Origin: Myxococcales bacterium
GTDB lineage: Bacteria > Myxococcota_A > Bradymonadia > Bradymonadales > Bradymonadaceae
Assembly (NCBI GenBank): GCA_007120035.1
Contig: SKON01000005.1
Coordinates: forward strand, 614 to 64,613
Length of the DNA stretch: 64,000 nucleotides
Reading direction: 5' to 3'
The notes beneath the pieces were generated by a model that saw nothing but the letters and a program-made list of their open reading frames with translations, made no database searches and had not been told where the DNA came from. How positions within the stretch are numbered: position 1 is the stretch's first letter; each line of letters opens with the position of its first letter. This document shows positions 6,269 to 37,711 of the stretch, piece by piece. The translations under genes were made by a program, and so were the position numbers.

Positions 6269-6276
6269 AGGGACTC

Positions 6277-22159: not shown

Positions 22160-22232
22160 TGCGAAGGGGCGGACTCGAACCGCCGACACCGGCCTTTTCA
22201 GGGCCGTGCTCTACCTGCTGAGCTACCTTCGC
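22160..22232 (-). tRNA. tRNA-Phe (anticodon GAA)
   Basis: 73-nt cloverleaf: acceptor GCGAAGG/CCTTCGC, D arm GCTC-AGCAGGTA-GAGC, anticodon loop CTGAAAA, T arm GGCGG-TTCGAGT-CCGCC. CCA is not encoded. Confidence 0.9.
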
Positions 22233-22522: not shown

Positions 22523-24163
22523 ATGAGAGTAGGTGTGACCGAGGGAGAGCGAAATCGCGGCAGCCTGGTCCCCACAGCGGTAATGCTGGGGGGATTGTTG
22601 ATCGGGGTTTCGATCCTGGCAATGAGCGGCTGTGATACGGTGGCTCAGATCGCGTTTCCGGAGCGGCGGTTTCAGGAGATTCGACCCATCGGGGTAATGC
22701 CCACGGGCGGCCAGTGCGATGGGGTGGGCAATCGAGGGTCGCTGCGGATGGTCTTGATGGCCAACGATGGGACACCGATCAAGCCCGGCGAAGATCTCTC
22801 CCTGGCGTCCGTGGATCTGCGGGCCCAGGATCTGAGTTGGAGCGACGGTCGTCTGTACACCTTCCCCGACGAGACCTGTGGCAGTGGCGAGTGTCCTCCG
22901 GCGTTTACGTGCACGGAGTCGACCACGGGTGTCGAGGAGCTCGGCAACCGATGCATGAACACAACGGCTCTGGGCGTGCCTTCGGATCCGGTGTTCGTGG
23001 GCAATGAACCTACCAGTCAAGCCCTGGCGGTGGTGCTCTCCAACGAGGGTCGGTGGCGGGGATGGCTGCCCGACGATCTAGGGACCTACTTCGAGGCCAA
23101 CCCGGACGGAACAGCGGTGGCGGGCGCCTCGGCGGATATTGGTCTGGACGATGGGCGAGCCGGAGACCGTCCGGGAGAGCGATACGGAGCCCTCGATCAG
23201 GCCCGTCAGGTGTGGCAAAACCTGGTGAATAACGTCGTCGAGCCCCAGGGGCGACAGGCCTTCTTTGGGCTGTGGACCTTCGCGGAGACGTCGGCGGAGA
23301 CGACCTCCCATGTGGGCCAGTTGAGCAGCCCCGAACAGCCATCGGTGTGGACCCGTCAGCCTCTCCGGGTAGCGCAGGCGATCCGGCAGGCGGAGGACAC
23401 CAACCCTCAGCGGACCCGGGCTGATGTGTACGCCCGTCTGCAGGACATCCTGGACGAGGGGTTCGGGCCCGACTCCCAGGTCGCCGCGGCGGTGCAGAAC
23501 GTCGAGGATCGGCACCTGGTGCTGATCGTGGGCGGTCCGAACGAGCGACCCCGACCGACCCTGGGGTACCAGGAGGTCGTGAGCGCCGCCCAAGATCTGG
23601 GGGTGACCATCTCGGTGATCCAGGTGGATCCGGCGATGGACAAGGACCTGCTTCGAGACGATCCCCGATACTACGAGACCGCAGCGAGTTGCTCCAGCGA
23701 TGCTGATTGCAAGAACTTCGAGGAGTGTCGTCAGGTGCAGCTCTGGTGCAACGCGTCGTCGGCGCAGTCCTGCAACGACGTGGCGTTCCCGGCGAACCCG
23801 GACAATCAGTACTGCGTCCCCGCCCGGGATGAGAACGGCCGCGTCGGGCCGATCGAAGATTATCAGCTCTTGGCCTGCGAGACCGGCGGCAGCTACTCCT
23901 ACATCCCGACGGTGACGAACAACCTCCTCTTTTCGCGATTGGCCGGGCAGGTGATGTGGCAGGAAGCGGGGTGGGAGGTGGAGATCGATATCAACGAGTC
24001 CGGGAGCTTGATCCCCGGTGAGCCCGCCGCGCTGCAGGGGGCCCTCCAGATCACCCAGGGGCAGACCCAGAGCTACAATTTCTCTCAACGGGGGAGCGTG
24101 TTGGGCACCCCGGGCGACCCATCGAGTTGGGACACCCGGCCGGTGTTCTTCAAGGCGCCCTGA
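22523..24163 (+). CDS. Cys-rich lipoprotein with a vWA-like alpha/beta core lacking a canonical MIDAS motif; first gene of the Glt/Nfs-type locus
   Basis: GAGGAAAGG SD and lipobox AMSGC. vWA-like strand pattern (LAVVLSNEGRW, FFGLWTFAETS, RHLVLIVGGPNE, GVTISVIQVD, ETGGSYSYI). 12 Cys after the lipobox. Confidence 0.7.
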   Translation: MRVGVTEGERNRGSLVPTAVMLGGLLIGVSILAMSGCDTVAQIAFPERRFQEIRPIGVMPTGGQCDGVGNRGSLRMVLMANDGTPIKPGEDLSLASVDLRAQDLSWSDGRLYTFPDETCGSGECPPAFTCTESTTGVEELGNRCMNTTALGVPSDPVFVGNEPTSQALAVVLSNEGRWRGWLPDDLGTYFEANPDGTAVAGASADIGLDDGRAGDRPGERYGALDQARQVWQNLVNNVVEPQGRQAFFGLWTFAETSAETTSHVGQLSSPEQPSVWTRQPLRVAQAIRQAEDTNPQRTRADVYARLQDILDEGFGPDSQVAAAVQNVEDRHLVLIVGGPNERPRPTLGYQEVVSAAQDLGVTISVIQVDPAMDKDLLRDDPRYYETAASCSSDADCKNFEECRQVQLWCNASSAQSCNDVAFPANPDNQYCVPARDENGRVGPIEDYQLLACETGGSYSYIPTVTNNLLFSRLAGQVMWQEAGWEVEIDINESGSLIPGEPAALQGALQITQGQTQSYNFSQRGSVLGTPGDPSSWDTRPVFFKAP

Positions 24164-24218
24164 GACAGTGACGATGACGATCGGAAGTGATCATCGCGGA
24201 TCAACGGAGAACCATACC

Positions 24219-24953
24219 GTGAAAGCCAGACCATGGAAGTTGGGCCTCGTAAGCCTCCTGATGCTGTCCCTCGTAGGCCTGAGCGGGCCTGTGATGGCCC
24301 AGGAGTTGGAGGAAGAGGAAGAGGCGGGCCTGCCGGAGCTCGATGATGACGACCCGATGTACTGGGCGCAGATGCGGGACGTGTACACCATGCAGCGGCG
24401 GGCGTTCCTGAAAGAAGGACGGTTCGCGCTCTCGGCGTACGCCGGCCTGATCCCGAACAACATCTTCGAGCAGTACTTCCCGCTGGGGCTGCGAGCCAAC
24501 TACTACATCCTGGAGAATATCGGGCTGGAGTTGTCGAGCTCCTATGCGTTCCGGCGGTCCACGGACCTGCGCCCGATCCTCACGGAGGACAGCGGGATCA
24601 ACGCCCGAGACGTGTTGATCGGTGACAAGCAGGTCTCCCACACGGTTTTCGGGGTCCAGTGGAGCCCGGCCTACGGGAAGTTTGCCCTCGGAGACTCGGG
24701 GCTCTTCTATTTCGATCTGAACGTCTTCGGCGGCGCCGGGATGGTGGTGGTCCAGACCGAGAGCGACTTCAACGCCCCCCCGGATACGACGGTGAAGCCC
24801 GAAGGGGTGATCGGTGCGGGAGCGGCGATCTTTCTGGGGCAACACGCCGGTCTTCGAGTGGACTTCCGACAGTTCGTCTTCCAGAAGGTGGAGGGCATCG
24901 GTGGGGTAGCCAACCCCTCGGAGGTCTCCGTGGGCTTTAGCTGGTTCTTCTAA
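24219..24953 (+). CDS. Outer-membrane beta-barrel protein, GltA/GltB (NfsA/NfsB)-like, paralogue 1
   Basis: Signal peptide KARPWKLGLVSLLMLSLVGLSGPVMA. Alternating beta-strand pattern. C-terminal SVGFSWFF. GTG at 24219 has a GGAGA SD 8 nt upstream (alternative ATG at 24174). Confidence 0.75.
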   Translation: MKARPWKLGLVSLLMLSLVGLSGPVMAQELEEEEEAGLPELDDDDPMYWAQMRDVYTMQRRAFLKEGRFALSAYAGLIPNNIFEQYFPLGLRANYYILENIGLELSSSYAFRRSTDLRPILTEDSGINARDVLIGDKQVSHTVFGVQWSPAYGKFALGDSGLFYFDLNVFGGAGMVVVQTESDFNAPPDTTVKPEGVIGAGAAIFLGQHAGLRVDFRQFVFQKVEGIGGVANPSEVSVGFSWFF

Positions 24954-24988
24954 GCGTTAAGCGACAACCGAGCAGGACAGGACATCTG

Positions 24989-25753
24989 ATGATCAAGAAG
25001 GCAAAGTGGAGTCTGGCAGCGGCGGCGGCCGTGGCGGTGTGCCTGGGGCTGAGCCTGCCGGCGTCGGCGGAAGAGGGCGGCCTGGACACAGAGCTCGAGC
25101 AGTTCTGGTCAGCCGACAGAGACGTCCGTGTGATCGAGAACCGCCTCTTCGAGCGAGAGGGCCGGTTCGGCGCCGGGCTGTACACGGGGCTTCTGTCCAG
25201 CGATCCCTTCTTCTACTACTTCCCCGTGGGGGTGCGGGCGACCTACCACTTCTCCAACAGCCTGGGGGTGGAAGTGGGGGGAGCGTTCATGGACGCCCCG
25301 TTTTTGACCCATAACACGGAGCTGACGGACTTTCTCCAGGAGAGCCGCCGAGAGAGCTTCAACAGCGCTACGGATACGATGGATCGGTATCTGTGGCGAG
25401 CCAACGCGGTGGCGGTGTGGAGCCCGTTTTACGGGAAGCTGGCGATCCTTCAGCGGAAGCTGGCCCACTTCGACCTGAACGTCGCCGGTGGGCTCGGGAT
25501 GGTGCAGGTGGAGCGTCCCGGGCTGGATACGGCGGGACAGCCGTCGCTCTCGGGGGAGGCGTTCAACCATATCACGATGGAAGTGGTGACCGGGGTGGGG
25601 GCCCATTTCTACATCACAGATTCCCTGCTGGTGCGTCTCGACGGGCGAGGATACCTGTACCGGGGGGCGGAGCTGGTCCACAACACGGACAGCTTCTTTC
25701 GCCAGTTGAAGTTCCCCATGGAGTTCCTGGTGGGAGCGACCTATCTCTTCTGA
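24989..25753 (+). CDS. Outer-membrane beta-barrel protein, GltA/GltB (NfsA/NfsB)-like, paralogue 2
   Basis: Signal peptide ending PASA. Shares the EGRF-x5-Y-x-G barrel start and overall pattern with the upstream gene. Ends LVGATYLF. Confidence 0.8.
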   Translation: MIKKAKWSLAAAAAVAVCLGLSLPASAEEGGLDTELEQFWSADRDVRVIENRLFEREGRFGAGLYTGLLSSDPFFYYFPVGVRATYHFSNSLGVEVGGAFMDAPFLTHNTELTDFLQESRRESFNSATDTMDRYLWRANAVAVWSPFYGKLAILQRKLAHFDLNVAGGLGMVQVERPGLDTAGQPSLSGEAFNHITMEVVTGVGAHFYITDSLLVRLDGRGYLYRGAELVHNTDSFFRQLKFPMEFLVGATYLF

Positions 25754-25811
25754 AGACGCCCCGCGAAGGGCCGGACAAGACGGCAGGACTACGACGATGC
25801 AGAAGGAAGCG

Positions 25812-27731
25812 ATGACAGAACGAGTAAGAGGTGTTCGTCTGCTGGCGGCTCTGGTGGTGGCGGTGTTGATCGCACTGCCCGCTGTGACGGCGATGGCGCT
25901 GGACAAGGATCAGATTGTCCAGATGACCCAGATGGGGCTCGACGACCGGGCGATCATGGGTGCCATCGACTCCGCCGGTGAGTCCCTGGCCCTCGATGAC
26001 GAGGACGTCGAGGACCTTCGAGAGCGGGGCGTCAGCGAGGATGTGATCAACCACCTGCGTCGGCGGGGGTTCATCATCTCCGATGCCGTCGAACAGGACG
26101 ACCTCGATGACGATGACTTCGACGATCTGGCGCCGGCGCCGGCGCCGGCCGAGGAGTCCGAAGAGGAGCGCGAAGAGCGAGAGCGCCTGGAGGCCGAAGA
26201 AGAGGAGCGAATTCGGCAGCGGGCCGAGGAGCTTCGTCGTGAGGAAGAAGAGGCAGCGCAGCGAGAGCGAGAGCTGGCGTCGGCCGCCGCTGAGCTTCCC
26301 CGGGCCCGGCAGCGCCTGGACCGCGACGACAATATGGCCGCCGCCCGGGTGTACCTGAGGTTTTTGGCCATGGACCCCCCCTACGACTCCGAAGAGTGGT
26401 ACGAGGCGACCTTCGGCCTGGCGCGAGCCCTGGTCCAGGAGGGGATCTACTCCGGGGCCACCTCGCCGCTTCTGGAGGTGTTGATGATGGGCGCCGACCG
26501 GAGCCACTTCGACGAGGCGTTCCGGATGCTCCAGACTTTGACCCGGGAAATTGGATATCAGCCGCCACTTCTGGAAGAATTGACCCAGTTTAACGTGGCC
26601 AATAAGAGCCAGTCCTTTCAGAACGAATTCAACTACTACATGGGCAAGTTCTTCTTCGACTACCGCCGGATGGATCTGGCGCTGGATTACTTCGAGCGGA
26701 TCCCACAGCAGGCTCCTCAGTATCCGGAGAGCCGGTATCTGGCCGGGGTGGCGCAGTTGGATCCGGCGGTCAACGACACCATCGGGGCCCTGCGAAACTT
26801 CGAGGATGCGATTTTGGCGGCCGAGGCGGCCACCGATGGCAATGAGGACATTCTGGAGCTGGGGTATCTGGCCCTTGCCCGAGTGTTCTTCGAGTTGGGA
26901 TTCTTCGATGTGGCGCTCTACTACTACCAGCAGATTCCCTCGGAGAGCGCCCGGTTCGCCGATAGCGTGTTCGAGTCGGCGTGGAGCTTCTTCATGAAGA
27001 ACGACTTCGAGCGGGCTCTGGGGGCGTTCCACTCGTTGCATAGCCCCTTCTACGCGCAGCGATACTACCCGGAGCTCTACATCCTGGAAGCGACGGTGTA
27101 TCTGAACCTGTGCAAGTTCCCGAAGAGCCAGCGGGCACTTGCGGAGTTCCAGAGGCAGTACCTGGATCAGCGGCCGATCCTCCAGGAGTATCTGGAGACG
27201 ACCTTTGAGCCCCGGGAATACTGGGAGATGATGAACAGGGTTTATCAGAATGGAAGCGAACCGGAGCTTCCCCGACTCTTTACCAACGCCGTGTTGGAGA
27301 GCATCTCGTTTTACAATATTCACCAGGTGATTCGAGCGCTGGAGGCGGAGAAGAGGGCGCTGATGGCCAATATCGACGCCCTGGGAGAGTTCGGAGAAGA
27401 GGTGTTGGGCCGAGTGGAAGAGCAATTGGAGCTGAACATCGAGGAAGGGGGGATTGTGGTACAGCAGCGCCTCAATGCCGTGGATCAAGAGTTGGAGACC
27501 TGGGTGTCTCGGGCGACGATGATCGAGATCGACATCGCCAGTGAAGAGATCGAACAGACTCGGCAACTCCTGCAGAACCCCGACTTTCAACCCCAGGACG
27601 GCCCGGAAGCGGGGACCACCTTGATGGTGGTGGCCGATGACTGGCAGTCCTGGCCCTTCGAGGGAGAGTACTGGGTGGATGAGGTCGGAAGCTATCGCAG
27701 CGCCTTGCGAACGGAGTGCATCGAACAATGA
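25812..27731 (+). CDS. Secreted TPR-repeat protein, GltC/NfsC-like
   Basis: Signal peptide MTERVRGVRLLAALVVAVLIALPAVTAMA, then a Glu/Arg-rich coiled segment and TPR-like repeats (FNYYMGKFFFDYRRMDLALDYFERI...). Alternative ATG at 25797. Confidence 0.7.
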   Translation: MTERVRGVRLLAALVVAVLIALPAVTAMALDKDQIVQMTQMGLDDRAIMGAIDSAGESLALDDEDVEDLRERGVSEDVINHLRRRGFIISDAVEQDDLDDDDFDDLAPAPAPAEESEEEREERERLEAEEEERIRQRAEELRREEEEAAQRERELASAAAELPRARQRLDRDDNMAAARVYLRFLAMDPPYDSEEWYEATFGLARALVQEGIYSGATSPLLEVLMMGADRSHFDEAFRMLQTLTREIGYQPPLLEELTQFNVANKSQSFQNEFNYYMGKFFFDYRRMDLALDYFERIPQQAPQYPESRYLAGVAQLDPAVNDTIGALRNFEDAILAAEAATDGNEDILELGYLALARVFFELGFFDVALYYYQQIPSESARFADSVFESAWSFFMKNDFERALGAFHSLHSPFYAQRYYPELYILEATVYLNLCKFPKSQRALAEFQRQYLDQRPILQEYLETTFEPREYWEMMNRVYQNGSEPELPRLFTNAVLESISFYNIHQVIRALEAEKRALMANIDALGEFGEEVLGRVEEQLELNIEEGGIVVQQRLNAVDQELETWVSRATMIEIDIASEEIEQTRQLLQNPDFQPQDGPEAGTTLMVVADDWQSWPFEGEYWVDEVGSYRSALRTECIEQ

Positions 27732-30700
27732 ACATTTCACCGCTGATCAAGAAATCACTCGTGGCGCTGGCCCTGGTCTCGTTGACCGGGGCGTCGTCGA
27801 CGGCGTTTGCGCAAGACGTTCGGGGCTCCGGTCGAGCGACGACCGACGATATCCTGTCCGCCGCCGAGGAGCGACTGGACGCGCAGGTGGAGGAGGAGGC
27901 CGAACGGGAGGTGGAGACCGACCTGGAGGCCGAGACCCGGGTGCGGCTGGAAGACACCCAGGTCGATGAGCGCTCTCCTGAGGAGATCGAGGCCCTGCAG
28001 CGCCAGTTGGAGTCTCGGTACGACAGCCAGATCCAGCGATTTCGCCAGCTGATCGAGAGCCAGCCCTACGATGCTCAGCGGCCGAACTGGATGTTCCAGA
28101 AGGCCGAGCTGCTGTGGGAGCTGCGGAACATGGAGTATGTCCGGGCCCGGTCGGAGTACAACGTGTGCCTCGACGCTGTGTATCAGGGGACTCTGGACGA
28201 GGCTGACTGCGATGAACCGTCGCCGGAGTACGAAGAGCCCCAGCGGCTCTACGAGGCGGTGCTCCAGGAGTTCCCGGACTATCCGCGGCTCGACGAAGTC
28301 CTCTTCCGACTGGGGAGCGGGCTGCTGGAGGCCGATGAGGGCGCCCAGGCGGTGAGCTATCTGCAGCGTTTGGTGAGCTCCTACCCGAACTCCCGGTACC
28401 TGCCGGACGCCTACCTGGCGCTGGGGGATTTCTTCTTTGACCAGCAGATGACCAGCGCGGCCCGGGACAACTACGAGAACGTCCTGAACCACGAGAGTTA
28501 TCGCAACTTCGACTACGCCGTGTATAAGCTGGGGTGGACCCACTTCAACATGGGCGAGCACCGGGAGAGCGCCGATCGGTTCAAGCAGGTGATCGAGGCG
28601 TCGGAAGGCCACCAGGCGTGGGGGTTCTTGCAGACCCAGGCGGCCAACGACCTGATGCTGGCGCTGGCGGAGCTGCCCGGGGGCTGGATCGAGGCCCGGG
28701 ATTACTTCACCAATCTGCGGGATATCGACTACGCCTACGAGCAGTTGGATCGGATGGCGGGATACCTGGAGATCCAGGGCAAGGATGAGGACGCCATCGC
28801 CGTGTACGACTGGTTCCTCCAGGAGCGGCCGAACCACCGAAACGTGCCGAGCTGGATGGACGCGGTGGCTCGGTCCCTGCGAGAGGTCGACTTCGAAGGG
28901 TATGAAGAGCGGGTCAATCAGGCCGTGGCCTACCTCCACCCGGACAGCATGTGGTCTCAGCACAACCGGGAGGAGGAGCGGGCCCGACGCAACGCCGATC
29001 TCTTCGTGGAGAGTAACCTCGCCCGTCTGGCCAACCATTACCACCGGCAGGCCCAGCGGCAGGAAGACGTGGAGAGCTACGCCACGGCCGCCGACTACTA
29101 CCAGCAGTTCATCGATTGGTTCCCGGAGCACCCGGCGTCCTTCGATATGACCTTCTTCCTGGGTGAGATCTACCTCTACGCCCTGGAAGACTATGAGCGG
29201 GCCGCCGCCCAGTATCAGATGGTGGTGGACCTGTACAACGGCGACAATATCCCGTCGGAGGCGAACGAAGACGACGTGGAGGCCCTGGTTCGGGACTCGG
29301 CGTACAACATCGTGGTCGCCTACAACGAGCTGGTGCGGATGCATCACCCGGAGAGCGTCCTGGTGGATATGGCGGAGCGGGCCGGGGAAGACCCGGAGCT
29401 GACCGTGCAGAGCGTCGACGAGCTCTCCGGCGAAGACGGGGAGACCCCGCCGATCGAGCGGCAGGATCTCTTGCGTTGGGAAGAAGGGTTCGTGCGGGCC
29501 AGCGATCAGTTCTCGGAGATGTATCCGAACGACGACATCACGCCGACGGTGGACTACGTGGCCGCCGAGGTCTATCGAAGCCGGGGGCACTACGACAACT
29601 GCATCCCCCGGTACGAGAGCATCATTCAGAACGCGCCTCAGCACCGGTACGCGAGCTTCGCCGGGAACTCCCTGTTGGAGGCGAACTATCGCCTGGAGCG
29701 ATGGGATGAGGTGGAGAAGTGGGCCCGGCACCTGTTGGAGAACGAGATCTTCGACGTGACGCCCGAGGATTCGCTGACCTCGGCGATCGCGTATGCGATC
29801 AACGAGCGGGCGATCAACCTGATGGAGGACGAGCAGTTCGACGACGCTGCCGACGACCTGCTGCGGCTGGCCGCGGAGTTCCCGGAGAGCCACCTGGCGC
29901 CGGGAGCCCTGTTCAACGCAGCGGCGATCTTCGAGCGCGGCGATCGGGTGAACCGGGCCGTGGAGGTCTACCTCCAGGTGGTCGACGACTATCCGTCCAG
30001 CGACCAGGCTCCGGAGGCCCTCTTCGTGCTGGGCTTGATTCACGAAGCCCGGACGGACTTCGCCCGGGCGGCGGACTTCTTCCAGCGCCTCGGGGAGGAG
30101 GAGTATCGAGACAACGAGAACGCCTCCACGGCGGTGTTCGACGCGGCGGTGTTGCGAGAGGCCATGGAGGACTGGCAGCTGGCCATCTCGACCTACGAGG
30201 ACTACCTGAGCTTCTTCGAGGACATCGACAACCGCAACGAGGTGGAGCTCCACCTGGCGTTTTTGGAGAAGGAGCGGGACGCGTGGACCGATGCGGAAGG
30301 GCGGTTTGAGCGATACCTTCAGAAGGAGGACATCCCGGACTCCGAGCGGGTGGAGATCCACCTGGAGCTGGGGTTGATCGCCGAGCGTCTGCAGCGAGGC
30401 AACAACTGGCAGGAGGAGGCGGATCGACACTTCACTCAGACTCTGGAGATCTGGGAGAGCCTGGAAGACGAAGAGGTGAAGCGAGCCTTGCGGCACCAGG
30501 CTTCGCAGGCTCGGTTCCGGCAGACGGAGGTGATCTTTGAGCAGTTCCGGGACGTGAACCTGTCGTTCCCGGTGGCCCGGCTTCGAGAGACGGCGGAACA
30601 GAAAGCGGAGCTTCAGCAGCAGGCGGAGACCATGTACCGAGAGATCATCGGCATGGGAAGCCCCCTGTGGGTGGCAGCGGCGTCGTTCCGAATTGGTCAG

Positions 30701-31129
30701 AGCTACCAGGAGTTCGCCGAGGCGCTCTTCGCCCTGCCGATTCCGGAAGGGCTGACCATGGAGCAGGAGATGGACTACGAGATGTCCATTGAGGATCTGG
30801 CGATGCCGCTTCAGGATCAGGCGCTGGCGGCGTATCGCAACGCCCTGGATCTGGCCCTCCGATTCCAGGCATACAACGAGTGGAGTAGCCGGTCGGCGGA
30901 GCAGATCAGCCAGTTGGAGCGGATCGCCTTCCCGATCACCGGCCAGGACGGGGTGACCGTGGAACACAACCGAACGGAGTTCTTCTCGCCGCCGGCGGTG
31001 GATTCCCTGGATGTGGTGTGGGAGCGAGGCGCCCCGCGGTGGGAGCGGCTGCGACCGCCGCCGCCGCCGGAGCCGGAGCTTGATGAAGAGGGCAACCCCA
31101 TTGAGGTCGACCAGGAGCCCGCATCGTGA
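27728..31129 (+). CDS. Giant secreted TPR-repeat protein (1133 aa), GltD(AgmU)/NfsD-like
   Basis: Signal peptide MNISPLIKKSLVALALVSLTGASSTAFA. Many YbgF/BamD-type TPR units (SYPNSRYLPDAYLALGDFFF, DYPSSDQAPEALFVLGLIH). ATGA overlap with the upstream gene. Confidence 0.75.
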   Translation: MNISPLIKKSLVALALVSLTGASSTAFAQDVRGSGRATTDDILSAAEERLDAQVEEEAEREVETDLEAETRVRLEDTQVDERSPEEIEALQRQLESRYDSQIQRFRQLIESQPYDAQRPNWMFQKAELLWELRNMEYVRARSEYNVCLDAVYQGTLDEADCDEPSPEYEEPQRLYEAVLQEFPDYPRLDEVLFRLGSGLLEADEGAQAVSYLQRLVSSYPNSRYLPDAYLALGDFFFDQQMTSAARDNYENVLNHESYRNFDYAVYKLGWTHFNMGEHRESADRFKQVIEASEGHQAWGFLQTQAANDLMLALAELPGGWIEARDYFTNLRDIDYAYEQLDRMAGYLEIQGKDEDAIAVYDWFLQERPNHRNVPSWMDAVARSLREVDFEGYEERVNQAVAYLHPDSMWSQHNREEERARRNADLFVESNLARLANHYHRQAQRQEDVESYATAADYYQQFIDWFPEHPASFDMTFFLGEIYLYALEDYERAAAQYQMVVDLYNGDNIPSEANEDDVEALVRDSAYNIVVAYNELVRMHHPESVLVDMAERAGEDPELTVQSVDELSGEDGETPPIERQDLLRWEEGFVRASDQFSEMYPNDDITPTVDYVAAEVYRSRGHYDNCIPRYESIIQNAPQHRYASFAGNSLLEANYRLERWDEVEKWARHLLENEIFDVTPEDSLTSAIAYAINERAINLMEDEQFDDAADDLLRLAAEFPESHLAPGALFNAAAIFERGDRVNRAVEVYLQVVDDYPSSDQAPEALFVLGLIHEARTDFARAADFFQRLGEEEYRDNENASTAVFDAAVLREAMEDWQLAISTYEDYLSFFEDIDNRNEVELHLAFLEKERDAWTDAEGRFERYLQKEDIPDSERVEIHLELGLIAERLQRGNNWQEEADRHFTQTLEIWESLEDEEVKRALRHQASQARFRQTEVIFEQFRDVNLSFPVARLRETAEQKAELQQQAETMYREIIGMGSPLWVAAASFRIGQSYQEFAEALFALPIPEGLTMEQEMDYEMSIEDLAMPLQDQALAAYRNALDLALRFQAYNEWSSRSAEQISQLERIAFPITGQDGVTVEHNRTEFFSPPAVDSLDVVWERGAPRWERLRPPPPPEPELDEEGNPIEVDQEPAS

Positions 31130-31155
31130 AGACGACAGAACTCGAGGAACGAAGC

Positions 31156-32361
31156 ATGAAGATCACGACGATGATGAGAGCCCCGGCGCTGCTCCTGGTG
31201 TTGTTGGTGGTGGCCACGGCCTGCCGGACGGCGCCGACGGTGGAGGACGATACAGCGCCGCCGGAGCCGACGAAGTTGGAGCGGATCTCTGAGGACACGG
31301 GGTTGTCCATCGAGTCTCTGGAGCTCTTCGATGAGTCTCTGGGGGTGATGGACTCCGACCGGAGCGCCGCGGCGGCGATCCTGGAGCGAGTGGTGGAGCT
31401 GGAGCCGACCTTCGCGGAGGCCCACTTCAACCTGGGGCTCCTCTACGGGGACATGGATCGCCCCGAGGACGCGGTGGTCCATATCCAGCAGGCCCGAGAG
31501 CTCGATCCCGACGTGTTCGACTACACCGTGGCGATGGCCAAGGCCTACGCCGAAGCCGGGGAGTACGAGGACGCCAAGCGGCTGTTCAACGAGGTCGTCA
31601 CCCGTCAGCCCGACAACCTGGTGGCCAAGAATAACCTGGCCGTGATCGCCCTGCGGCAGGGAGACGAGGAAGAAGCCCTGCGGTTTGTGGAAGAGATCCT
31701 CCGGGAAGACAACCAGAACGTGGGGGCCCTGAACACCCTGGGGCTGGTGTACATGGAGCGACAGAACCTCTCCCTGGCGAAGTTCGTGCTGGGTCGGGCC
31801 CTGGAGCAAGACGAGCACCAGGTCGATGTGTTGAACAACCTGGGGCTGGTGTACATGCAGGAGGAGAACGTGCCGGCGGCGGTGCGGGCCTTCGCCCGGG
31901 CCGTGGATGCCGATCCGAACTACCTGGAGAGCCGCCTGAACCTGGGCTCGATCCTCCTGGAGTATCTCGATTACGAGCGGGCCCACGACCACTTCGAGAA
32001 CGCCGTGAGGATCGCGCCTCAGAACTGCGTGGCCAATCTGGGTAAGGGGGCGACCTCCTTTGCCCTGGGGAGCCACGAAGAGGCCTACGAGTTGTACTCC
32101 TACTACCTGGACAGCTGCGACAGCGATCACTATTCGTCGACCCAGCGGCTGGCGTCTCTGGCGGAGAACTACCTGCAGCGGCCAGGGGACGCGATTCGTC
32201 ATTACGAGCGGCTCATCGAGCTCAGCGATGACGCCAGCGATATCGCCAACTATGAAGCCACGATCGGGTTCTTGCGGACCCAGGCCGACCAGGCACAGCA
32301 GGCCCAGCCCGTGCAGCCTGACGAGATCGCCGAAGAAGAGGAAGAAGGCGATCAGGACTGA
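31156..32361 (+). CDS. TPR-repeat lipoprotein, GltE(AglT)/NfsE-like
   Basis: GAGGAA SD. Lipobox LVVATAC. Canonical TPR units (AEAHFNLGLLYGDMDRPEDAVVHIQQARELDP...). Alternative GTG at 31126 overlaps the upstream stop. Confidence 0.7.
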   Translation: MKITTMMRAPALLLVLLVVATACRTAPTVEDDTAPPEPTKLERISEDTGLSIESLELFDESLGVMDSDRSAAAAILERVVELEPTFAEAHFNLGLLYGDMDRPEDAVVHIQQARELDPDVFDYTVAMAKAYAEAGEYEDAKRLFNEVVTRQPDNLVAKNNLAVIALRQGDEEEALRFVEEILREDNQNVGALNTLGLVYMERQNLSLAKFVLGRALEQDEHQVDVLNNLGLVYMQEENVPAAVRAFARAVDADPNYLESRLNLGSILLEYLDYERAHDHFENAVRIAPQNCVANLGKGATSFALGSHEEAYELYSYYLDSCDSDHYSSTQRLASLAENYLQRPGDAIRHYERLIELSDDASDIANYEATIGFLRTQADQAQQAQPVQPDEIAEEEEEGDQD

Positions 32362-32443
32362 TGGATTGACGGTCAACGATCCTGTTTGTTACCTTGAGGG
32401 TCAGCAGTGAGCTGAACAGCCAACAACCGAAAAGAGGCTTGCG

Positions 32444-32704
32444 ATGAAGAGGAATCTGCTTTTTGCCCTGATTTTGGCAGCGGTGATGGCTCTGGGGTCC
32501 ACGGCGATGGCCGATGATGGAGATGGGGAGGAGCGAGCACGGTTCTACGATTTCGAGAACATGCTCATTGACGGGGAGTTCAGGTCGCCTGACCTGATGC
32601 TGATGGAGGGGCAGGGGCGAGCTCAGTTTGACCGTCTGTTGAACCTTCGGACCAGCTTCATCCCGAAGATCGAAGAGAGCACAGAAGAGCGCTCGTTGCG
32701 CTGA
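32444..32704 (+). CDS. Small secreted protein (86 aa) in the GltF/NfsF position
   Basis: AAGAGG SD. Signal peptide MKRNLLFALILAAVMALGSTAMA. Assigned by size and position only. Confidence 0.55.
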   Translation: MKRNLLFALILAAVMALGSTAMADDGDGEERARFYDFENMLIDGEFRSPDLMLMEGQGRAQFDRLLNLRTSFIPKIEESTEERSLR

Positions 32705-32792
32705 TGGGTCGGTTCTCCGGGGCGTTGCTGATTCGTCCTGAGCAACAGAGAGCGACGATGACTGAGCACGCCAGGAAAGGAGCAGTTCCACA

Positions 32793-34724
32793 ATGAAAAT
32801 CATTTGCGACAGCTGTGGAGCGAAGTATTCCATCGCCGATGAAAAGGTGCAGGGGAAGGTCTTCAAGATTCGCTGCAAGAAGTGCAGCGAGGTGATCGTC
32901 GTCAAGGGGACCGACGACGGTGGTGGCGGTGGCGGCGGAGATTACGGCTCGGCGTACGGCAACGGAGCCGGGGCGGCTGAGTGGTACGTCGTGATCGATG
33001 GAGAGCGGGACGGCCCGATCACCCCGGAGGAGATCGAAGCCTACTACACGATCGGCAAGTTGGGGCCCGAGACCTTCGTCTGGCGAGATGGGCTCGATGA
33101 TTGGGTGATGTTGAACACCCTGTCGGAGTTTGCTCATCTGACGGCGGACTCCGCCGGTCCGGAAGAGAAGACCATGATCGCCGCCCGATCCCCGGAGCTG
33201 GCGGACTCTCCGATGGCCGCGTCTCCGATGGCCGCGGCACCGGCGGCGGCCTCTCCGGCCGCGACGGCGCTGGGGATGGGAGGTCTGGCGGGGCTGGACG
33301 GTGGCGATGATGAACTGGAAGACTCCACGATGGTGATGGAGTCGGGGCGGTTCGAGGCCGGCCAGTTCGAGGCCCCCGAGGAGGAAAGCCATGCTGCCGT
33401 GGAGAGTGGAAGTTACGGTTCCCTGAGCGGGGCGTCCGGCGGTGCCGGGGCGGCCAACGGAGTCAACAACGGGTATGACTCGGGGTACAGCTCGGGAGGA
33501 ATCGAGGCCAGCGCGGCAAGCACCGATACTGGTGGAATGGACACGGGCGGTGGGTTTGACGCCGGGTATGACTCCGGCAGTGGCTACGATGACGGTGGCT
33601 ACGACGACAGCGATCAGGGGGGGATGTTTGCGGCCTTCGATTCGGGAGACGACTCCGACTACAGTAGCTCGGACTACTCGGCGGACGCCGGTCCCTCGCT
33701 GGAGAGCTCCGGCGGTGATGACCTGGTGGGGGCCCGAAACGATAACAGCGTCCTCTTCAGCCTGAGCAGCGTCGATCAGGTCAAGGCGGTGAGCAAGCCC
33801 GGTGACGGTCAGGCTCAGGGCAACGACAAATCCGGGCTGATCGACATCCAGGCGTTGGCGTCGACCCAGGCGGCCCTGAAAGGGGGAGGCGGCCTCGAGG
33901 ATGACGATGACGCCGACTTCGCGGCCGGAGCGATGAGCGTTCCCGCGTTGATGCCCATGGGTAGCCATAAGAAGAGCAACAATGGGCTGATTATCGGGAT
34001 CTCCATCGGCGGTGGTCTGGTGGTGGTGGCTTTGATCGTTATCGTGGCGGTGCTCTTGCTGAGGGATGGCGACGATCCACAGACTCAGCAGGTGGTGGCC
34101 GTGGCCGAGGAGTCCGAAGAGCCCGAAGAAGAGGAGCTCAGTGAAGAGGAGGCCGCCGAGGCGGAGGCGGCCGCTGAGGCTGCCCGAGCAGCCCTGGAGG
34201 CGGCCGAGGAAGAAGAGGAGGAAGAGGAAGAGGCCGAGCAAGAGGAAGAAGAAGCTCCTCGAGAGACGGCTCGAGCCGAGCGGACCCCCCGGCAGCCCCG
34301 CGGTGACAGTGGTGGGGCAGCGCGGCCACGTCAAGAGAGGCAAGAGACTCGTCAAACCGGCAGCAGTATCGTCGACCAGCTCGACCGGGGGCAGCGGCAA
34401 CAACAACAGCAGCCGGCACAGCAGCAGCAGGCCAGCCGATCGGACCTCCCGGAGAGCTTGAGCCGGAATATGGTGAGCAGCACGATCCGTCGATACAACG
34501 CTCAGATTCGAAGCTGCTCGCAGAATAACCCCGAAGGGGTGAGTGGGCAGGCGACGGTCCGGTTTGTGGTGATGGGCAACGGGTCGGTCTCCTCAGCGTC
34601 GGCTCAGGACGAGTTCTCGGGAACCACGGTGGGGAGCTGTCTGGAAGGAGTCGTGCGGGGGATGCGGTTCCCCGAGACCCAGGATGATCGCCGAACCATC
34701 GCGTTCCCGTTCCCCGTACGTTAA
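32793..34724 (+). CDS. Zinc-ribbon, GYF, single-TM, TonB-C-like (AgmX/PglI C-terminal) protein; GltJ/GltG/NfsG-like
   Basis: MKIICDSCGAKYSI...FKIRCKKCSEVIVV (MJ0042-type CxxC...CxxC). GYF_2-like segment EWYVVIDGERDGPITPEEIEAYYTIGKLGPETFVWRDGLDDWVML. TM segment GLIIGISIGGGLVVVALIVIVAVLLL. C-terminal segment ATVRFVVMGNGSV...VGSCLEGVVRGMRFP. Confidence 0.8.
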   Translation: MKIICDSCGAKYSIADEKVQGKVFKIRCKKCSEVIVVKGTDDGGGGGGGDYGSAYGNGAGAAEWYVVIDGERDGPITPEEIEAYYTIGKLGPETFVWRDGLDDWVMLNTLSEFAHLTADSAGPEEKTMIAARSPELADSPMAASPMAAAPAAASPAATALGMGGLAGLDGGDDELEDSTMVMESGRFEAGQFEAPEEESHAAVESGSYGSLSGASGGAGAANGVNNGYDSGYSSGGIEASAASTDTGGMDTGGGFDAGYDSGSGYDDGGYDDSDQGGMFAAFDSGDDSDYSSSDYSADAGPSLESSGGDDLVGARNDNSVLFSLSSVDQVKAVSKPGDGQAQGNDKSGLIDIQALASTQAALKGGGGLEDDDDADFAAGAMSVPALMPMGSHKKSNNGLIIGISIGGGLVVVALIVIVAVLLLRDGDDPQTQQVVAVAEESEEPEEEELSEEEAAEAEAAAEAARAALEAAEEEEEEEEEAEQEEEEAPRETARAERTPRQPRGDSGGAARPRQERQETRQTGSSIVDQLDRGQRQQQQQPAQQQQASRSDLPESLSRNMVSSTIRRYNAQIRSCSQNNPEGVSGQATVRFVVMGNGSVSSASAQDEFSGTTVGSCLEGVVRGMRFPETQDDRRTIAFPFPVR

Positions 34725-34725
34725 T

Positions 34726-35298
34726 ATGATCCGTACTATTCTCAGCGCGATCGCCGGAAGATCGGCGATCGCGCTCGTCGTTGGGGGACTCCTCGTGGTG
34801 GGCTGTCAGGGGCCCCAGGAAGAGCCGATTCCGTGGGTCCCCGAAGAGGAGGAGAGCTCCAAGGCGTCGACGCAGGAGACGGCGGAGAGCACCGGAGGGC
34901 TGGCCACCCAGGAGGACCCTCAGTTGCCAGGGGGACGTTCCTTGCGGGAGATGGGGCAGGATCTGCAGGCTCGGCAGGGATTCCGGCCGGAGATCACGGG
35001 GGTCCACCTTCGGTATCTGATGGGGGAGTATCGGGAGGTCTGGGAGGTCTGTTACGAAGAGCACGGCGGGGACGAGCGGCCCGAGGTGGTGGTGCATTTC
35101 TCTGTGAGCCCCAACGGGAAGCCCTTTGAAATCCAGGCGGCCGAGGAACTGGCGGGGGGAGAGCTAGCGACTTGTCTGACCGACGCTCTGGCGTCCTATA
35201 CCTTTCCCCCGTTGAACCGAGCGGAGCCGCAAGAGCTGCGGTACATCTTCCGGCCCGAGCCCCCTCAGGCGCTATTCTCCGAGCCCAGAAGGCGTTGA
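34726..35298 (+). CDS. Lipoprotein with an AgmX/PglI-type C-terminal domain, in the GltH/NfsH position
   Basis: Lipobox LLVVGC. The C-terminal segment VVVHFSVSPNGKPF...LATCLTDALASYTFPP parallels the C-terminus of the upstream gene. The start lies 1 nt after the upstream stop. Confidence 0.65.
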   Translation: MIRTILSAIAGRSAIALVVGGLLVVGCQGPQEEPIPWVPEEEESSKASTQETAESTGGLATQEDPQLPGGRSLREMGQDLQARQGFRPEITGVHLRYLMGEYREVWEVCYEEHGGDERPEVVVHFSVSPNGKPFEIQAAEELAGGELATCLTDALASYTFPPLNRAEPQELRYIFRPEPPQALFSEPRRR

Positions 35299-36806
35299 AG
35301 GCGAGGATCATCGGGGCGGACGGCCAGGGTCGAGCCGCCGGAGACTGTGACCAGACCGTGCGGGGCGTTAGAGGGCTTACGGACGTGCTTGGCCCGGGTG
35401 TAGGTGACGTCCACCAGGGTGTCTGACTTCCCACGAGAAAAGTGAGCGGCGAGGAGCGCGGCGTCGAGGAGGTCCTCACTGCGGGGATCGGCGTCTTTCT
35501 CCATTCGCAACACCACATGGGCTCCGGCGAAGTCCCGGGCGTGGAGCCACAGGTCTCGCCCACGGGCGACGGAGACGGTGAGCTCGTCGTTGTGGCGAGC
35601 GCCGCGGCCCACGAGGATGGTAGCGCCGCTGAGGGCCAGGAAGGTACGATAAGGGGGCAGCGAGGCGGCGCCTTTTCGACCGGGAGTGCGTCGGGGCTGT
35701 TTCTTCTTGAGAAGTCGCCGGCTGCGGAGGTCCTCCCGGAGAGCCTGGAGCTCTTGGAGGGGGAGCTCGGCGGTGATCTCGGCCCGGGCGGCTTCGATGG
35801 TGTCGAGGCGTTCCATGATGGATAGGAGGCGATCCTCGACGCGTTGCCGAGCCGCGCTGTAGCGGCGGTATTGATGAAAATAGCGGTCGATATTGGCCTG
35901 GAGGCTCTTGGCGGGATCCAGGGGGATCTCCACCAGGGGCATGCCCTCCTGGTAGTAATCGGGGACCTCCACGGAGGAAGCCCCCCGTTGGACGACGCCG
36001 TAGGCGCTCTGCAAGAGCTCGCCGCGGCGTTGAAACTCCTCGGCGTCTTCGATCTTTTCGAGGTCCGCTTCGATGTTCTGGACCTTGCGGCGGGTGCGGC
36101 GGGCGGCGCTCTTCAGGGAGCTCCGAAGGGCCCGGCGGAGCTCGTCGGCGGCGGCTTCGCCGAGGTGGCTGTCGAGGAAGCTGGCCAACGCCTGGGAGCG
36201 GCTGCCGTCGGGGGGCAAGTCGTCGAGGGGTGGCAGGTCGTGGGGATCCGTGTCCTGGGAGAGCTCCGGAGGGGGAGCGGGGAGGGTGTAGGGACGGCCC
36301 GGGTCGTCGGTGCGGTCGCCCAGGAGGGGACCGGGGGTGGCGCCGAGGATGGTCCCGGACTCCCGAAGGAGAAAGATCTTGGGGGAGCCGCCGACGAGCT
36401 CGGCGACGAGTCGCAGGGGGACCCGTGGGGCCTGGTCGTCGTCGTCGACGGGCTCCCAGTCGGGGTCCACGGCCTCGAGGTCCAAGGTGATCACTCGATC
36501 CCGGGGAGAGAGGGCGATGTCGGTGATCCAGGCGCCGTGGATCCACTTGCGAAGGAGCATCGTCCAGGCCGTCGGGGTGTCCGGCTGGGTGGGTTTCTGG
36601 GCCACCAGGTGCACCCTGGGCCATCGCCGGTGGGGGTCGAGGCGCAGGTGGTGGGTGTGCCCGGGGGAACGGATCTGGAGGACCACGGCCCGATCGGAGG
36701 CCCCCTGGAGATCGAGGCACCCGAAGGCCCGCTGGATCCGGGCCGGGATGAGCAGGGACCGGAGCTCTTCGGTGATCAGGTCGAGGGTGTGGTGTGAGAG
36801 GGGCAT
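35265..36806 (-). CDS. NFACT-family (FbpA/RqcH-like) protein with a DUF814 domain
   Basis: C-terminal DUF814 pattern DLWLHARDFAGAHVVLR...VDVTYTRAKHVRKP. The N-terminal domain is NFACT-N-like. Confidence 0.8.
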   Translation of the reverse strand: MPLSHHTLDLITEELRSLLIPARIQRAFGCLDLQGASDRAVVLQIRSPGHTHHLRLDPHRRWPRVHLVAQKPTQPDTPTAWTMLLRKWIHGAWITDIALSPRDRVITLDLEAVDPDWEPVDDDDQAPRVPLRLVAELVGGSPKIFLLRESGTILGATPGPLLGDRTDDPGRPYTLPAPPPELSQDTDPHDLPPLDDLPPDGSRSQALASFLDSHLGEAAADELRRALRSSLKSAARRTRRKVQNIEADLEKIEDAEEFQRRGELLQSAYGVVQRGASSVEVPDYYQEGMPLVEIPLDPAKSLQANIDRYFHQYRRYSAARQRVEDRLLSIMERLDTIEAARAEITAELPLQELQALREDLRSRRLLKKKQPRRTPGRKGAASLPPYRTFLALSGATILVGRGARHNDELTVSVARGRDLWLHARDFAGAHVVLRMEKDADPRSEDLLDAALLAAHFSRGKSDTLVDVTYTRAKHVRKPSNAPHGLVTVSGGSTLAVRPDDPRLQRLLGSENSA

Positions 36807-36931: not shown

Positions 36932-37711
36932 ATGACGGAGTCGATGGGAAGAGGGCGAAGGGCGGTGGGGATCTGGGCCGCGGTGTTGGGGCTGCTCTTT
37001 TTCACGGGGTGCGCCATGCTCCAGAATCCCGAGAATGAGGATCAGAAGCAAGCCGAGTGGCACTACGAGATGGGGATGGGGTATTTCGAAGCCAATGACA
37101 CGACCCACGCGATCCGGGAGCTGACCCGGGCGTTGGAGTTGAACCCCGATCACAGCCAGGCCCACTACTTGATGGGGTTTATCTACATGGGTCGGCGGGA
37201 TTACACCCGGTCGATCCATCACTTTCGAGAGACCCTGAGGGTGGATCCAAATTACTACTTCGCCCAGAACAACCTGGGGACCGTGTATCTGGCGATGGAG
37301 CGGTGGGAAGACGCCGCGGAGCTCTTCGCGGAGCTTCTGGAGAGGCCGCTGTACACCACGCCGGAGCTGGCCCATAACAACCTGGGGTGGGCCTACTTCA
37401 AGATGGGGCGCCACGCCGAGGCCCTGGAGCACCTGCGGATGGCCGTGTTCTTGTCCCCCGATATGTGCCTGGCGGACAACAATATGGGGCAGGTCTACGA
37501 GGAGATGGGCAACCGATCCGACGCGGCCCGGTATTATCGGCGAGCCATCGAGAAGTGCCCGCGAAACTATCAGGAGCCTCACTTTCGGTTGGGGAGGCTC
37601 CTGCAGGAGCAGGGCGACCCCAACGCGGCGGCGCATTTTCGGCGGTGCATTGAGATCCAGTCCCGCAGCGATCTGGCCGAGCGGTGTCGGCAGTATCTGA
37701 GCGTGAACTAG
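36932..37711 (+). CDS. TPR lipoprotein resembling the type IV pilus secretin assembly factor PilF/PilW/Tgl
   Basis: Lipobox FFTGC. About 6 TPR units, including LYTTPELAHNNLGWAYFKMG, and a C-terminal Cys pair (CIEIQ...ERC). Size is about 250 aa, as in PilF/Tgl. Confidence 0.6.
   Translation: MTESMGRGRRAVGIWAAVLGLLFFTGCAMLQNPENEDQKQAEWHYEMGMGYFEANDTTHAIRELTRALELNPDHSQAHYLMGFIYMGRRDYTRSIHHFRETLRVDPNYYFAQNNLGTVYLAMERWEDAAELFAELLERPLYTTPELAHNNLGWAYFKMGRHAEALEHLRMAVFLSPDMCLADNNMGQVYEEMGNRSDAARYYRRAIEKCPRNYQEPHFRLGRLLQEQGDPNAAAHFRRCIEIQSRSDLAERCRQYLSVN

Follow-up and report, generated by a model that had tools for sequence, protein, structure and literature searches.

We have analysed a 64-kb stretch of bacterial DNA of about 65% GC (from contig SKON01000005.1; the window, below, is this whole stretch), in which a run of nine genes at positions 22523–35298 very probably specifies the transducer, in outer membrane and periplasm, of a trans-envelope complex of the Glt/Nfs family. 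An initial annotation of the window had proposed a compact, single-locus machine of this type, and the proposal stands: the two predicted β-barrels pass the threshold of their family, four further proteins have named Glt proteins as their best matches, and the gene order recurs in some 80 loci. As for the output of the complex, the reading we favour is gliding or adhesion to a substratum, by analogy with the Glt-type transducer of adventurous gliding and bacterial focal adhesions, with a motor that would be encoded away from the locus; we would put the probability of this at roughly 0.6.

The nine open reading frames (ORFs), here called g1 to g9, all lie on the plus strand. From g1 to g9 they are spaced by 55, 35, 43, −4, 26, 82, 88 and 1 nt, with an ATGA overlap of g4 and g5 at 27728–27731 and a lone base between g8 and g9 at 34725, exactly as first described. 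GC content at third codon positions (GC3) is 0.72–0.87 across all nine frames, which is coding-like, and the translations show signal peptides, lipoboxes in g1, g6 and g9 and a C-terminal Phe in g2 and g3. Public gene calls made independently on contigs of identical sequence (ENA ERZ27301262:k141_1357304, offset 143; metagenome-assembled genome (MAG) GCA_003562835.1) contain the same nine genes. Proteins were assigned to families by NCBIfam and Pfam profile scans, with the curated (ortholog/equivalog) cut-offs of NCBIfam as thresholds. For comparison, one genome per GTDB species was scanned with GltC motifs from a narrow GltC alignment; this gave 403 relatives, the best 80 loci were kept, and their ORFs were searched with the nine proteins, a hidden Markov model (HMM) of the g1 family and Bdellovibrionales seeds resembling GltG and AglRQS. 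Myxococcus xanthus is not among these best 80 loci, and its GltD, GltG, GltH and Nfs proteins thus lie outside the direct comparison.

The products of g2 (24219–24953, 244 aa from a GTG start that matches the public gene calls) and g3 (24989–25753, 254 aa) appear to be outer-membrane β-barrels of the GltA/GltB family. Both have signal peptides and score above the 60-bit cut-off of TIGR04565 (OMP_myx_plus), at 82.9 and 84.5 bits respectively; g2, which also matches the Pfam family OMP_b-brl, ends in FF and g3 in LF. They are paralogues with 30% identity (E 2e-28). The initial annotation had this right, together with the signal peptides and the terminal Phe, but the barrel motif common to the pair is EGRF-x4-Y-x-G and not EGRF-x5-Y-x-G. 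Some related loci have a single barrel only.

Our reference for GltK, GltB, GltA and GltC was a bona fide G2 cluster from the genome scan, locus L077 of an Archangium sp. MAG, which holds a CglC/GltK protein (169 bits against a cut-off of 60), a GltC (1024 bits against 450) and two TIGR04565 barrels (GltB/GltA). Sequence comparison makes it clear that g4 (25797–27731) encodes a GltC-like periplasmic tetratricopeptide repeat (TPR) protein that would be associated with the outer membrane, a distant homologue rather than a certified orthologue. It matches the gliding_GltC model NF033756 over profile positions 58–621 of 622 with E 1e-56, at 193 bits against an equivalog cut-off of 450, and aligns end to end with the L077 GltC (25% identity across 536 aa, E 6e-46), with which it has a C-terminal WPxEGEYWxDEVGxY...C motif in common. 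That g4 is a secreted TPR protein had been seen before, although the length of 639 aa given for it holds only if the second ATG is used; from the first, the protein has 644 aa.

The sizes reported earlier for the next three products, 1133, 401 and 86 aa, agree with the ORFs. The largest, from g5 (27728–31129), has a signal peptide and only generic NCBIfam and Pfam matches (TPR, YbgF and BamD-type), among them the YbgF model TIGR02795 at 145 bits, above its cut-off, through five repeated TPR stretches; no Glt-specific model matched. A gene of this type invariably stands between the GltC-like and GltE-like genes, and g5 is similar (phmmer E 1e-39 to 1e-69) to equivalents of 1050–1100 aa in Bdellovibrionota loci that carry an FHA (forkhead-associated domain) GltG and MotA_ExbB/ExbD genes. 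Position and this homology together suggest a GltD-like giant periplasmic TPR scaffold, to be read as a positional orthologue, since M. xanthus GltD was outside the comparison. The product of g6 (31156–32361; 411 aa if a GTG at 31126 is used, which would give a 4-nt overlap with the g5 stop) is probably a GltE-like TPR lipoprotein below the equivalog cut-off: its signal peptide ends in ...VATAC and, besides matches to many generic TPR families, its best match is to the gliding_GltE model NF033758 (E 1.6e-35, 122.9 bits against 225, profile positions 6–372 of 411). For g7 (32444–32704) the sole match, with E 2.2e-8, is to the gliding_CglF model NF033764, at 34 bits where the cut-off is 90 and over profile positions 9–87 of 88. 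Nearly all loci keep a gene of its type behind the GltE-like gene; we regard g7 as encoding a putative small secreted protein of GltF/CglF type, likewise below the equivalog cut-off. We take CglF, after Pathak and Wall 2012, to be the same protein as GltF.

The domains of g8 (32793–34724, 643 aa) point to a bitopic inner-membrane anchor of GltJ type, not of GltG/NfsG type. The predicted protein consists of a zinc ribbon (ZnR, residues 1–37), a short Gly-rich linker, a GYF domain (64–113), a disordered part, one transmembrane (TM) helix at about 396–422, an acidic periplasmic spacer and a TonB-C-like domain (556–640), so that the zinc ribbon, GYF, TM and TonB-C-like parts noticed at the outset are all accounted for. 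Pfam Zn_ribbon_4 and GYF_2 are matched above their gathering scores and the AgmX/PglI C-terminal domain NF033768 above its cut-off (46.4 bits against 40); the match to the gliding_GltJ model NF033761 has E 7.7e-43, at 147.5 bits against 450. The top PDB matches are the GYF (7z3c, E 9e-11) and ZnR (7zok, E 6e-7) domains of M. xanthus AgmX/GltJ, and a profile of the C-terminal domain made from 18 orthologues finds TonB C-terminal domains best (7zc8, E 0.0014, then further TonB entries). An equivalence of g8 with GltG or NfsG, which carry FHA domains (PMC3169522, PMC11761067), was considered and rejected: Pfam finds no FHA domain in the nine proteins of the locus, and the GltG model NF033760, which does match the GltG-like protein of another locus (L012), leaves g8 unmatched. 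The Nfs system has no GltJ paralogue, its NfsG being an FHA-type paralogue of GltG (PMC3858216), and the GltJ-type anchor therefore sets the locus closer to Glt than to Nfs.

Directly ahead of the TM helix of g8, at about 33930–33970 of the window, lies a cytoplasmic juxtamembrane motif, PALMPMGS(H/R)(K/R)SN, which ZnR-GYF anchors across the clade share and the FHA GltG-like proteins lack; the motif could be where the motor or some other partner docks. The His motif of SHLS type known from TonB and TolA was not found in the TM helix of g8 or its orthologues. The linker between ZnR and GYF is 26 aa long in g8 and 14–41 aa in all orthologues in which both domains were called.

The last gene, g9 (34726–35298, 190 aa; 204 aa if an ATG at 34684 is used), has a lipobox ending in ...VVGC and a coding-like GC3 of 0.77. 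It had been described as a lipoprotein with the same C-terminal domain as g8, and this holds for the lipoprotein part, while the domain is related but weakly: BLASTP gives E 0.001, and hhalign 82% with E 1e-5 over 77 columns, both conserved Cys included. The C-terminal ~80 residues of g9 match NF033768 below the cut-off (E 0.0028), and the top Foldseek matches of a poor single-sequence model (mean pLDDT, or predicted local distance difference test score, 55.7) are with few exceptions C-terminal domains of TonB, TolA and HasB, none of them significant. No homologue of g9 is present in Lujinxingia sediminis or in any other locus compared, where likeness is limited to the C-terminal domains of g8 orthologues; the 281-aa gene found downstream of g8 in one of these loci (L010) has no similarity to g9 and was rejected as its equivalent. 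Nor is g9 a GltH or NfsH, as GltH is a β-barrel and g9 a lipoprotein with a TonB-C-like domain. We consider it a lineage-specific accessory lipoprotein, probably with a divergent TonB/TolA-C-like domain, that stands outside the conserved cassette; since g9 has no homologue elsewhere, the conserved unit is g1–g8, and of the nine-gene unit first proposed eight genes stand.

At the other end of the cassette, g1 (22523–24163, 546 aa) is predicted to encode a Cys-rich lipoprotein of outer-membrane type with a von Willebrand factor A (vWA) fold, which accords with the first description of it as vWA-like. The lipobox is SGC with Cys37, which is conserved in the family; most of the other 12 of its 13 Cys are invariant in this family, whose motif runs C-x5-C-KNFEEC-R ... 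RDENGRxGPI ... AC-x-TGG-x-Y-x-Y. Neither Pfam nor NCBIfam gave a match to g1 even at E 10. An AlphaFold model built on an alignment of 33 homologues (pLDDT 89.3, predicted template-modelling score 0.88) retrieves from the PDB by Foldseek, with E 1e-6 to 1e-4, the I-domains of integrins αM and αX (including 1jlm), TFIIH p44/Ssl1, Rpn10 and the vWA domain of ITIH1. When g1 is placed by hhalign on a canonical vWA protein, the DxSxS positions of MIDAS (metal-ion-dependent adhesion site) are taken by S173, E175 and R177, and the position of the β4 Asp by G337. The wider family retains Ser-x-Ser and D337/D340 and is missing the first Asp. At residues 173–177 and 337–340 (about 23039–23053 and 23531–23542) g1 reads N-E-G-R and V-G-G-P-N against a family consensus of N-x-G-S and V-D-G-P-D, and through this loss of consensus residues the present g1 is the least MIDAS-like copy of its family.

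We propose that g1 may act at the surface as an adhesin or may cap the barrel module, by analogy with CglB, the Cys-rich vWA lipoprotein that serves as the surface adhesin of M. xanthus gliding and is held by GltA, GltB and GltK (PMC9946355). That g1 might be GltK itself, or a fused or enlarged GltK, was considered and rejected: hhalign of the g1 family against L077 GltK gives 0.4%, with likeness at the lipobox only, and the GltK model NF033754, which recognises the L077 protein, does not match g1. Directly beside gltK/cglC, L077 encodes on the minus strand (2114–3532) a secreted vWA protein of 472 aa whose MIDAS is canonical (DRSGSMSG). Its likeness to the g1 family is limited to the vWA core (hhalign 66%), and its place may be a coincidence or another linkage of vWA and Glt genes.

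The comparative loci show how widely the arrangement is kept. The core order barrel(s)-GltC-GltD-GltE-GltF is found in the ~80 species-level loci, from Bradymonadia to Bdellovibrionota, and such conservation in dozens of species-level genomes means that the arrangement is not accidental. Three forms can be told apart. In Bradymonadia and allied Myxococcota MAGs (form a) a gene of the g1 family comes first in the cassette in 40 loci, six more loci are truncated upstream and five are without it; 23 species-level loci have the ZnR-GYF anchor next after GltF, and the flanks hold no motor genes. Other Myxococcota MAGs (form b) have the vWA gene and the core, with either no anchor detected after GltF or, occasionally, one of FHA type. 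In Bdellovibrionota/Oligoflexia (form c) there is no vWA gene, and GltF is succeeded by an FHA GltG-like gene, behind which 14 loci have a single MotA_ExbB gene and two of ExbD type, as Pfam confirmed for one locus (L085); this matches the Bd0828–0838 type of Luciano et al. 2011 (PMC3169522). The direct neighbourhood of FHA GltG and MotA_ExbB/ExbD genes in Bdellovibrionota ties the core to a TolQR-type motor. None of the 30 other loci (Bdellovibrionota-type loci, the Archangium G2 cluster and second clusters) has a g1-family gene, which is the extra gene most consistently linked to the cassette in this clade and lies outside the nfsA-H/glt set. In a different lineage this same cassette starts with a remote relative of g1 (P0204, 463 aa), which argues that the linkage of vWA and barrel genes is old. 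Neither of the outcomes that the initial annotation named as refuting it was seen: the profile matches go beyond generic BamD and YbgF models, with g2 and g3 passing TIGR04565 and g4, g6, g7 and g8 best matched by GltC, GltE, CglF and GltJ, and the core gene order is conserved from Bradymonadia to Bdellovibrionota. Its equation of the order with nfsA-H survives for barrel-barrel-C-D-E-F-anchor; g8 is not NfsG, g9 is not NfsH/GltH, and g1 falls outside that set.

If the complex works as a Glt-type transducer, the paired barrels g2 and g3 would form a platform in the outer membrane, and g1 would be held on or in this platform as a surface-exposed contact element, in a role analogous to that of CglB or perhaps GltK. 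The GltC-like g4 would dock beneath the barrels, and g5, the GltD-like protein, could form a long periplasmic pillar decorated by g6 (GltE) and g7 (GltF). It is conceivable that g8, lying across the inner membrane, grips this scaffold with its TonB-C-like domain; an AlphaFold model of the M. xanthus proteins has the TonB-C-like domains of GltG and GltJ bound to opposite faces of GltD (PMC11761067). The TM helix of g8 would then couple to a proton-driven stator of TolQR/AglRQS type encoded elsewhere in the genome, and its cytoplasmic ZnR/GYF module would receive a cytoplasmic assembly signal. In this genome only, g9 may supply a second TonB-C-like plug; most relatives would make do with the g8 domain alone. 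Gliding as the output would suit the cultured Bradymonadales, which are reported to be gliding or weakly gliding, contact-dependent predators (PMC7188933); the Bradymonadales literature that we searched names no glt genes or gliding apparatus and puts surface movement down to type IV pili/S-motility.

Several observations weigh against gliding as the output. Within the window there is no GltH, GltK, GltI, AglRQS, MglA/B or AglZ. The searches were Pfam on the public gene calls (1–62371), NCBIfam on unannotated genes and jackhmmer with Bdellovibrionales MotA_ExbB/ExbD seeds; they agree with the initial annotation that the window holds no TolQ/TolR pair, MglA/MglB or GltI-like protein, and they revealed no FHA-type GltG, third barrel or giant cytoplasmic TPR protein in it either. 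A TolQ/TolR-type motor is missing from the flanks of the Bradymonadia loci as well as from the window, but M. xanthus, too, has its aglRQS genes away from glt (PMC3169522), so the lack of a linked motor is normal. In M. xanthus the component for which binding to AglR has been shown is GltG (PMC3169522, PMC3858216), and as the locus has no FHA GltG the coupling of g8 to a motor is an assumption. The M. xanthus GltJ linker is 95 aa long and contains the binding site for MglA-GTP (PMC11135422), a segment without counterpart in the 26-aa linker of g8. The protein-specific Glt matches of g4, g6, g7 and g8 all fall below the NCBIfam ortholog cut-offs; these are distant homologues, and their function may have diverged. 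As for g1, it has none of the MIDAS residues at the DxSxS...T...D positions mapped by hhalign, and a MIDAS Asp mutant of CglB, D56A, was stably expressed without restoring gliding (PMC9946355). Nor was a sequence link between g1 and CglB found: NCBIfam at E 10 and a profile search returned no CglB-named protein, and ten remote members of the g1 family, named just 'VWA domain-containing protein', have weak generic vWA matches and no CglB-type NCBIfam match. Two MAGs have, besides a form-a cassette, a second Glt-like cluster in which no barrels or vWA gene were detected (L058 with L088; L027 with L084). In L088 the order GltC'-D'-E'-F' is followed by an FHA-type GltG (Pfam FHA, E 1.6e-17), with no MotA_ExbB/ExbD gene in the next 2.6 kb; in L084 the contig stops within GltD'. 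Such a second cluster, and not the form-a cassette, could be the motility system. Finally, core Glt-like clusters occur in non-gliding bacteria too, as Luciano et al. stressed (PMC3169522).

Two other functions seem to us unlikely, and about equally so. The complex might be a surface conveyor of the Glt/Nfs family that moves no cell and instead hauls polymer or coat material (exopolysaccharide, or a cyst or spore coat) as Agl-Nfs does, or that performs an ancestral core function. The sub-threshold Glt matches and the clusters of non-gliders would suit this, as would the second cluster with FHA GltG if that were the motility system; the single-operon order of barrels, C, D, E, F and anchor mirrors nfsA-H (PMC3858216), and an epimerase/dehydratase gene of polysaccharide-synthesis type lies 2.4 kb downstream of the locus, at 37727–39412. 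However, Nfs uses the FHA-type NfsG in place of a GltJ-type anchor, a conserved vWA lipoprotein of surface type is better suited to adhesion than to polymer handling, the operon contains no Wza/Exo-type export genes, and sporulation is not reported for Bradymonadales in PMC7188933 or PMC11509652. It is similarly improbable that the complex is an apparatus for contact or adhesion in predation, presenting g1 to prey or kin cells so that they attach or touch outer membranes, with no net translocation, although Bradymonadales kill on cell contact only (PMC7188933, PMC11509652, PMC7460792), the cassette itself supplies a conserved vWA lipoprotein rich in Cys (g1), and Kil/Tad-like predation systems are common to Bradymonadales, Myxococcus and Bdellovibrio (PMC8460266). 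The locus has no genes for prey-killing effectors or their secretion, g1 is without the MIDAS ligand-binding site, and the homologous systems that have been characterised are force transducers with a TolQR motor (PMC3169522, PMC3858216); this explanation also overlaps with the one we favour, in that gliding adhesion and prey adhesion do not exclude each other. A chance run of generic envelope genes (YbgF/CpoB, BamD-like TPR proteins, OmpA-like barrels and a TonB paralogue) can be dismissed as highly improbable, for although g5 passes the YbgF cut-off and also matches BamD models, and g6 matches many generic TPR families, these YbgF and BamD matches are repeated TPR units within a protein far larger than the ~260 aa of that family, the specific best matches of g4, g6, g7 and g8 are Glt models, the window offers neither a tolQRAB-pal nor a bamA context (tol, pal and bam neighbours are all missing), and the eight-gene order kept in dozens of species from two phyla-level groups already contradicts it.

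Within the gliding interpretation it is possible, though rather doubtful, that the eight-gene cassette is a self-contained minimal or ancestral transducer, with its adhesin in cis, one GltJ-type protein doing the work of both GltG (motor coupling) and GltJ (cytoplasmic switch), and an input other than MglA-GTP, as the short ZnR-GYF linker would imply. If so, the architecture with the vWA gene first, which at least 40 species-level Myxococcota lineages have, would be the commoner one, and the split layout of M. xanthus, with separate CglB, GltK, GltH and GltI, would be derived. The replacement of the FHA anchor of Bdellovibrionota by a ZnR-GYF anchor in Bradymonadia makes the cytoplasmic control module look exchangeable on a common TM/TonB-C scaffold. 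More generally, the eight genes give Bradymonadales a concrete candidate for a gliding apparatus, in one operon that is present in the cultured, genome-sequenced Lujinxingia, and for reconstitution and structural studies so compact an operon is a better base than the M. xanthus genes, which are scattered. The linkage of a vWA lipoprotein to the barrel/GltC module in dozens of lineages supports the view that a vWA surface element is integral to Glt machines and not a peculiarity of Myxococcus.

The surroundings of the locus are those of an ordinary chromosomal region. The flanking genes are of housekeeping type (NaPRTase, a two-component pair, dCMP deaminase, tRNA-Phe and NFACT) and the same flanking genes are found in Lujinxingia, which argues that the locus is vertically inherited and chromosomal, and not an island. 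The tRNA-Phe gene (GAA anticodon, 22160–22232), which is encoded on the minus strand, opposite to g1, and starts ~290 bp upstream of it, marks the upstream limit of the operon's control region; it was the only hit of an Rfam search upstream of g1, which found no riboswitch or other RNA family, and promoter and terminator scans gave background level only. At species level, the genome scan has soda-lake-type 'CSSed' MAGs as the nearest relatives, and g4 shares 65–66% identity with proteins from Lujinxingia sediminis and L. litoralis (Bradymonadales, family Lujinxingiaceae); this identity, together with a MYXO-CTERM protein in the window, fits a host in the Bradymonadales/Lujinxingiaceae lineage. 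The latter protein (48658–50397, minus strand, 579 aa), with several neighbours that match no family, has a C-terminal MYXO-CTERM domain at 28 bits against a cut-off of 20 and fits a Myxococcota host.

Downstream of the locus, beyond the NFACT gene (35265–36806, minus strand), a 259-aa TPR protein is encoded at 36932–37711 on the plus strand. In Lujinxingia and at least seven other loci (L009, L026, L029, L034, L036, L053 and L061) the region downstream of the cassette likewise has a TPR ORF of similar size; in L009 the ORF is placed past a convergent NFACT gene, and it may be a mere conserved neighbour. Some 5 kb downstream of the locus, at 40611–43502 (plus strand), the public gene call has a large signalling protein of 963 aa, by Pfam a fusion of a Ser/Thr protein kinase, a STAND/AAA_16 NTPase and a MalT-type TPR region. 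Unrelated to the locus, adjacent genes at 5108–7653 (minus strand) specify a parallel β-helix protein (TIGR03805, 322 bits) and a dihaem cytochrome c of the SO2930 family (TIGR03806, 334 bits), two families whose members are known to co-occur.

Set beside better-known systems, g8 resembles TonB and TolA in being bitopic: a cytoplasmic N-terminal part is followed by a single TM helix, a long charged spacer in the periplasm and, at the C terminus, a domain of TonB type. It differs from them in its large cytoplasmic ZnR-GYF module, its lack of the SHLS-type His and its juxtamembrane PALMPMGS(H/R)(K/R)SN motif, and its partner would be a TPR scaffold in place of the TonB-dependent receptor engaged by TonB. 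Between g1 and CglB the likeness extends to the lipoprotein nature, a vWA fold near the I-domains of integrin αM/CR3, many conserved Cys and a functional or genomic tie to GltA/B barrels. CglB is smaller, however (416 aa against 546 aa), and has the MIDAS whose residues are missing from g1. The M. xanthus cglB gene is not linked to the glt genes. About 130 residues lie between the lipidated Cys of g1 and the start of its vWA core, whereas in CglB only ~36 residues separate the lipobox C20 from the MIDAS Asp D56 (PMC9946355).

The clusters of Bdellovibrio type (Bd0828–0838), in which GltA/B, C, D, E, F and G are followed by homologues of aglRQS, have the same order of barrel(s), C, D, E and F, recovered in 27 Bdellovibrionota/Oligoflexia loci, but these have an FHA GltG-like protein with MotA_ExbB and two ExbD genes and no vWA gene, while the Bradymonadia cassette has the vWA gene, the ZnR-GYF anchor and no linked motor. 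The Nfs system of M. xanthus is alike in its contiguous barrel, barrel, C, D, E, F and TonB-C-like anchor and in having no GltI or GltK paralogue. The locus lacks two elements of the nfsA-H composition: its anchor is of GltJ type where Nfs, which has no GltJ paralogue, has the FHA-type NfsG (PMC3858216), and the lipoprotein g9 is found in place of the NfsH/GltH-type barrel; it also adds a vWA lipoprotein. With the Agl-Glt system of M. xanthus the locus has in common the paired GltA/B-family barrels, the C-, D- (by position), E- and F-like proteins in the same order, the ZnR-GYF-TM-TonB-C anchor of GltJ type, a candidate surface element in the form of a Cys-rich vWA lipoprotein, and an unlinked motor. 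In M. xanthus, however, the genes are spread over several clusters (G1 gltD-J, G2 gltK-B-A-C and aglRQS) in contrast to the one operon found here, gltK stands where this locus has its vWA lipoprotein first, and GltG (FHA), the GltH barrel and GltI are additional components that have no match in the locus or the window, while the ZnR-GYF linker of 95 aa in GltJ compares with 14–41 aa in g8 orthologues. Judged from the protein families, then, the locus appears to differ from the model system chiefly in a vWA surface lipoprotein encoded in cis and an anchor of GltJ rather than GltG type, and as such it extends a known system without overturning the current understanding of it.

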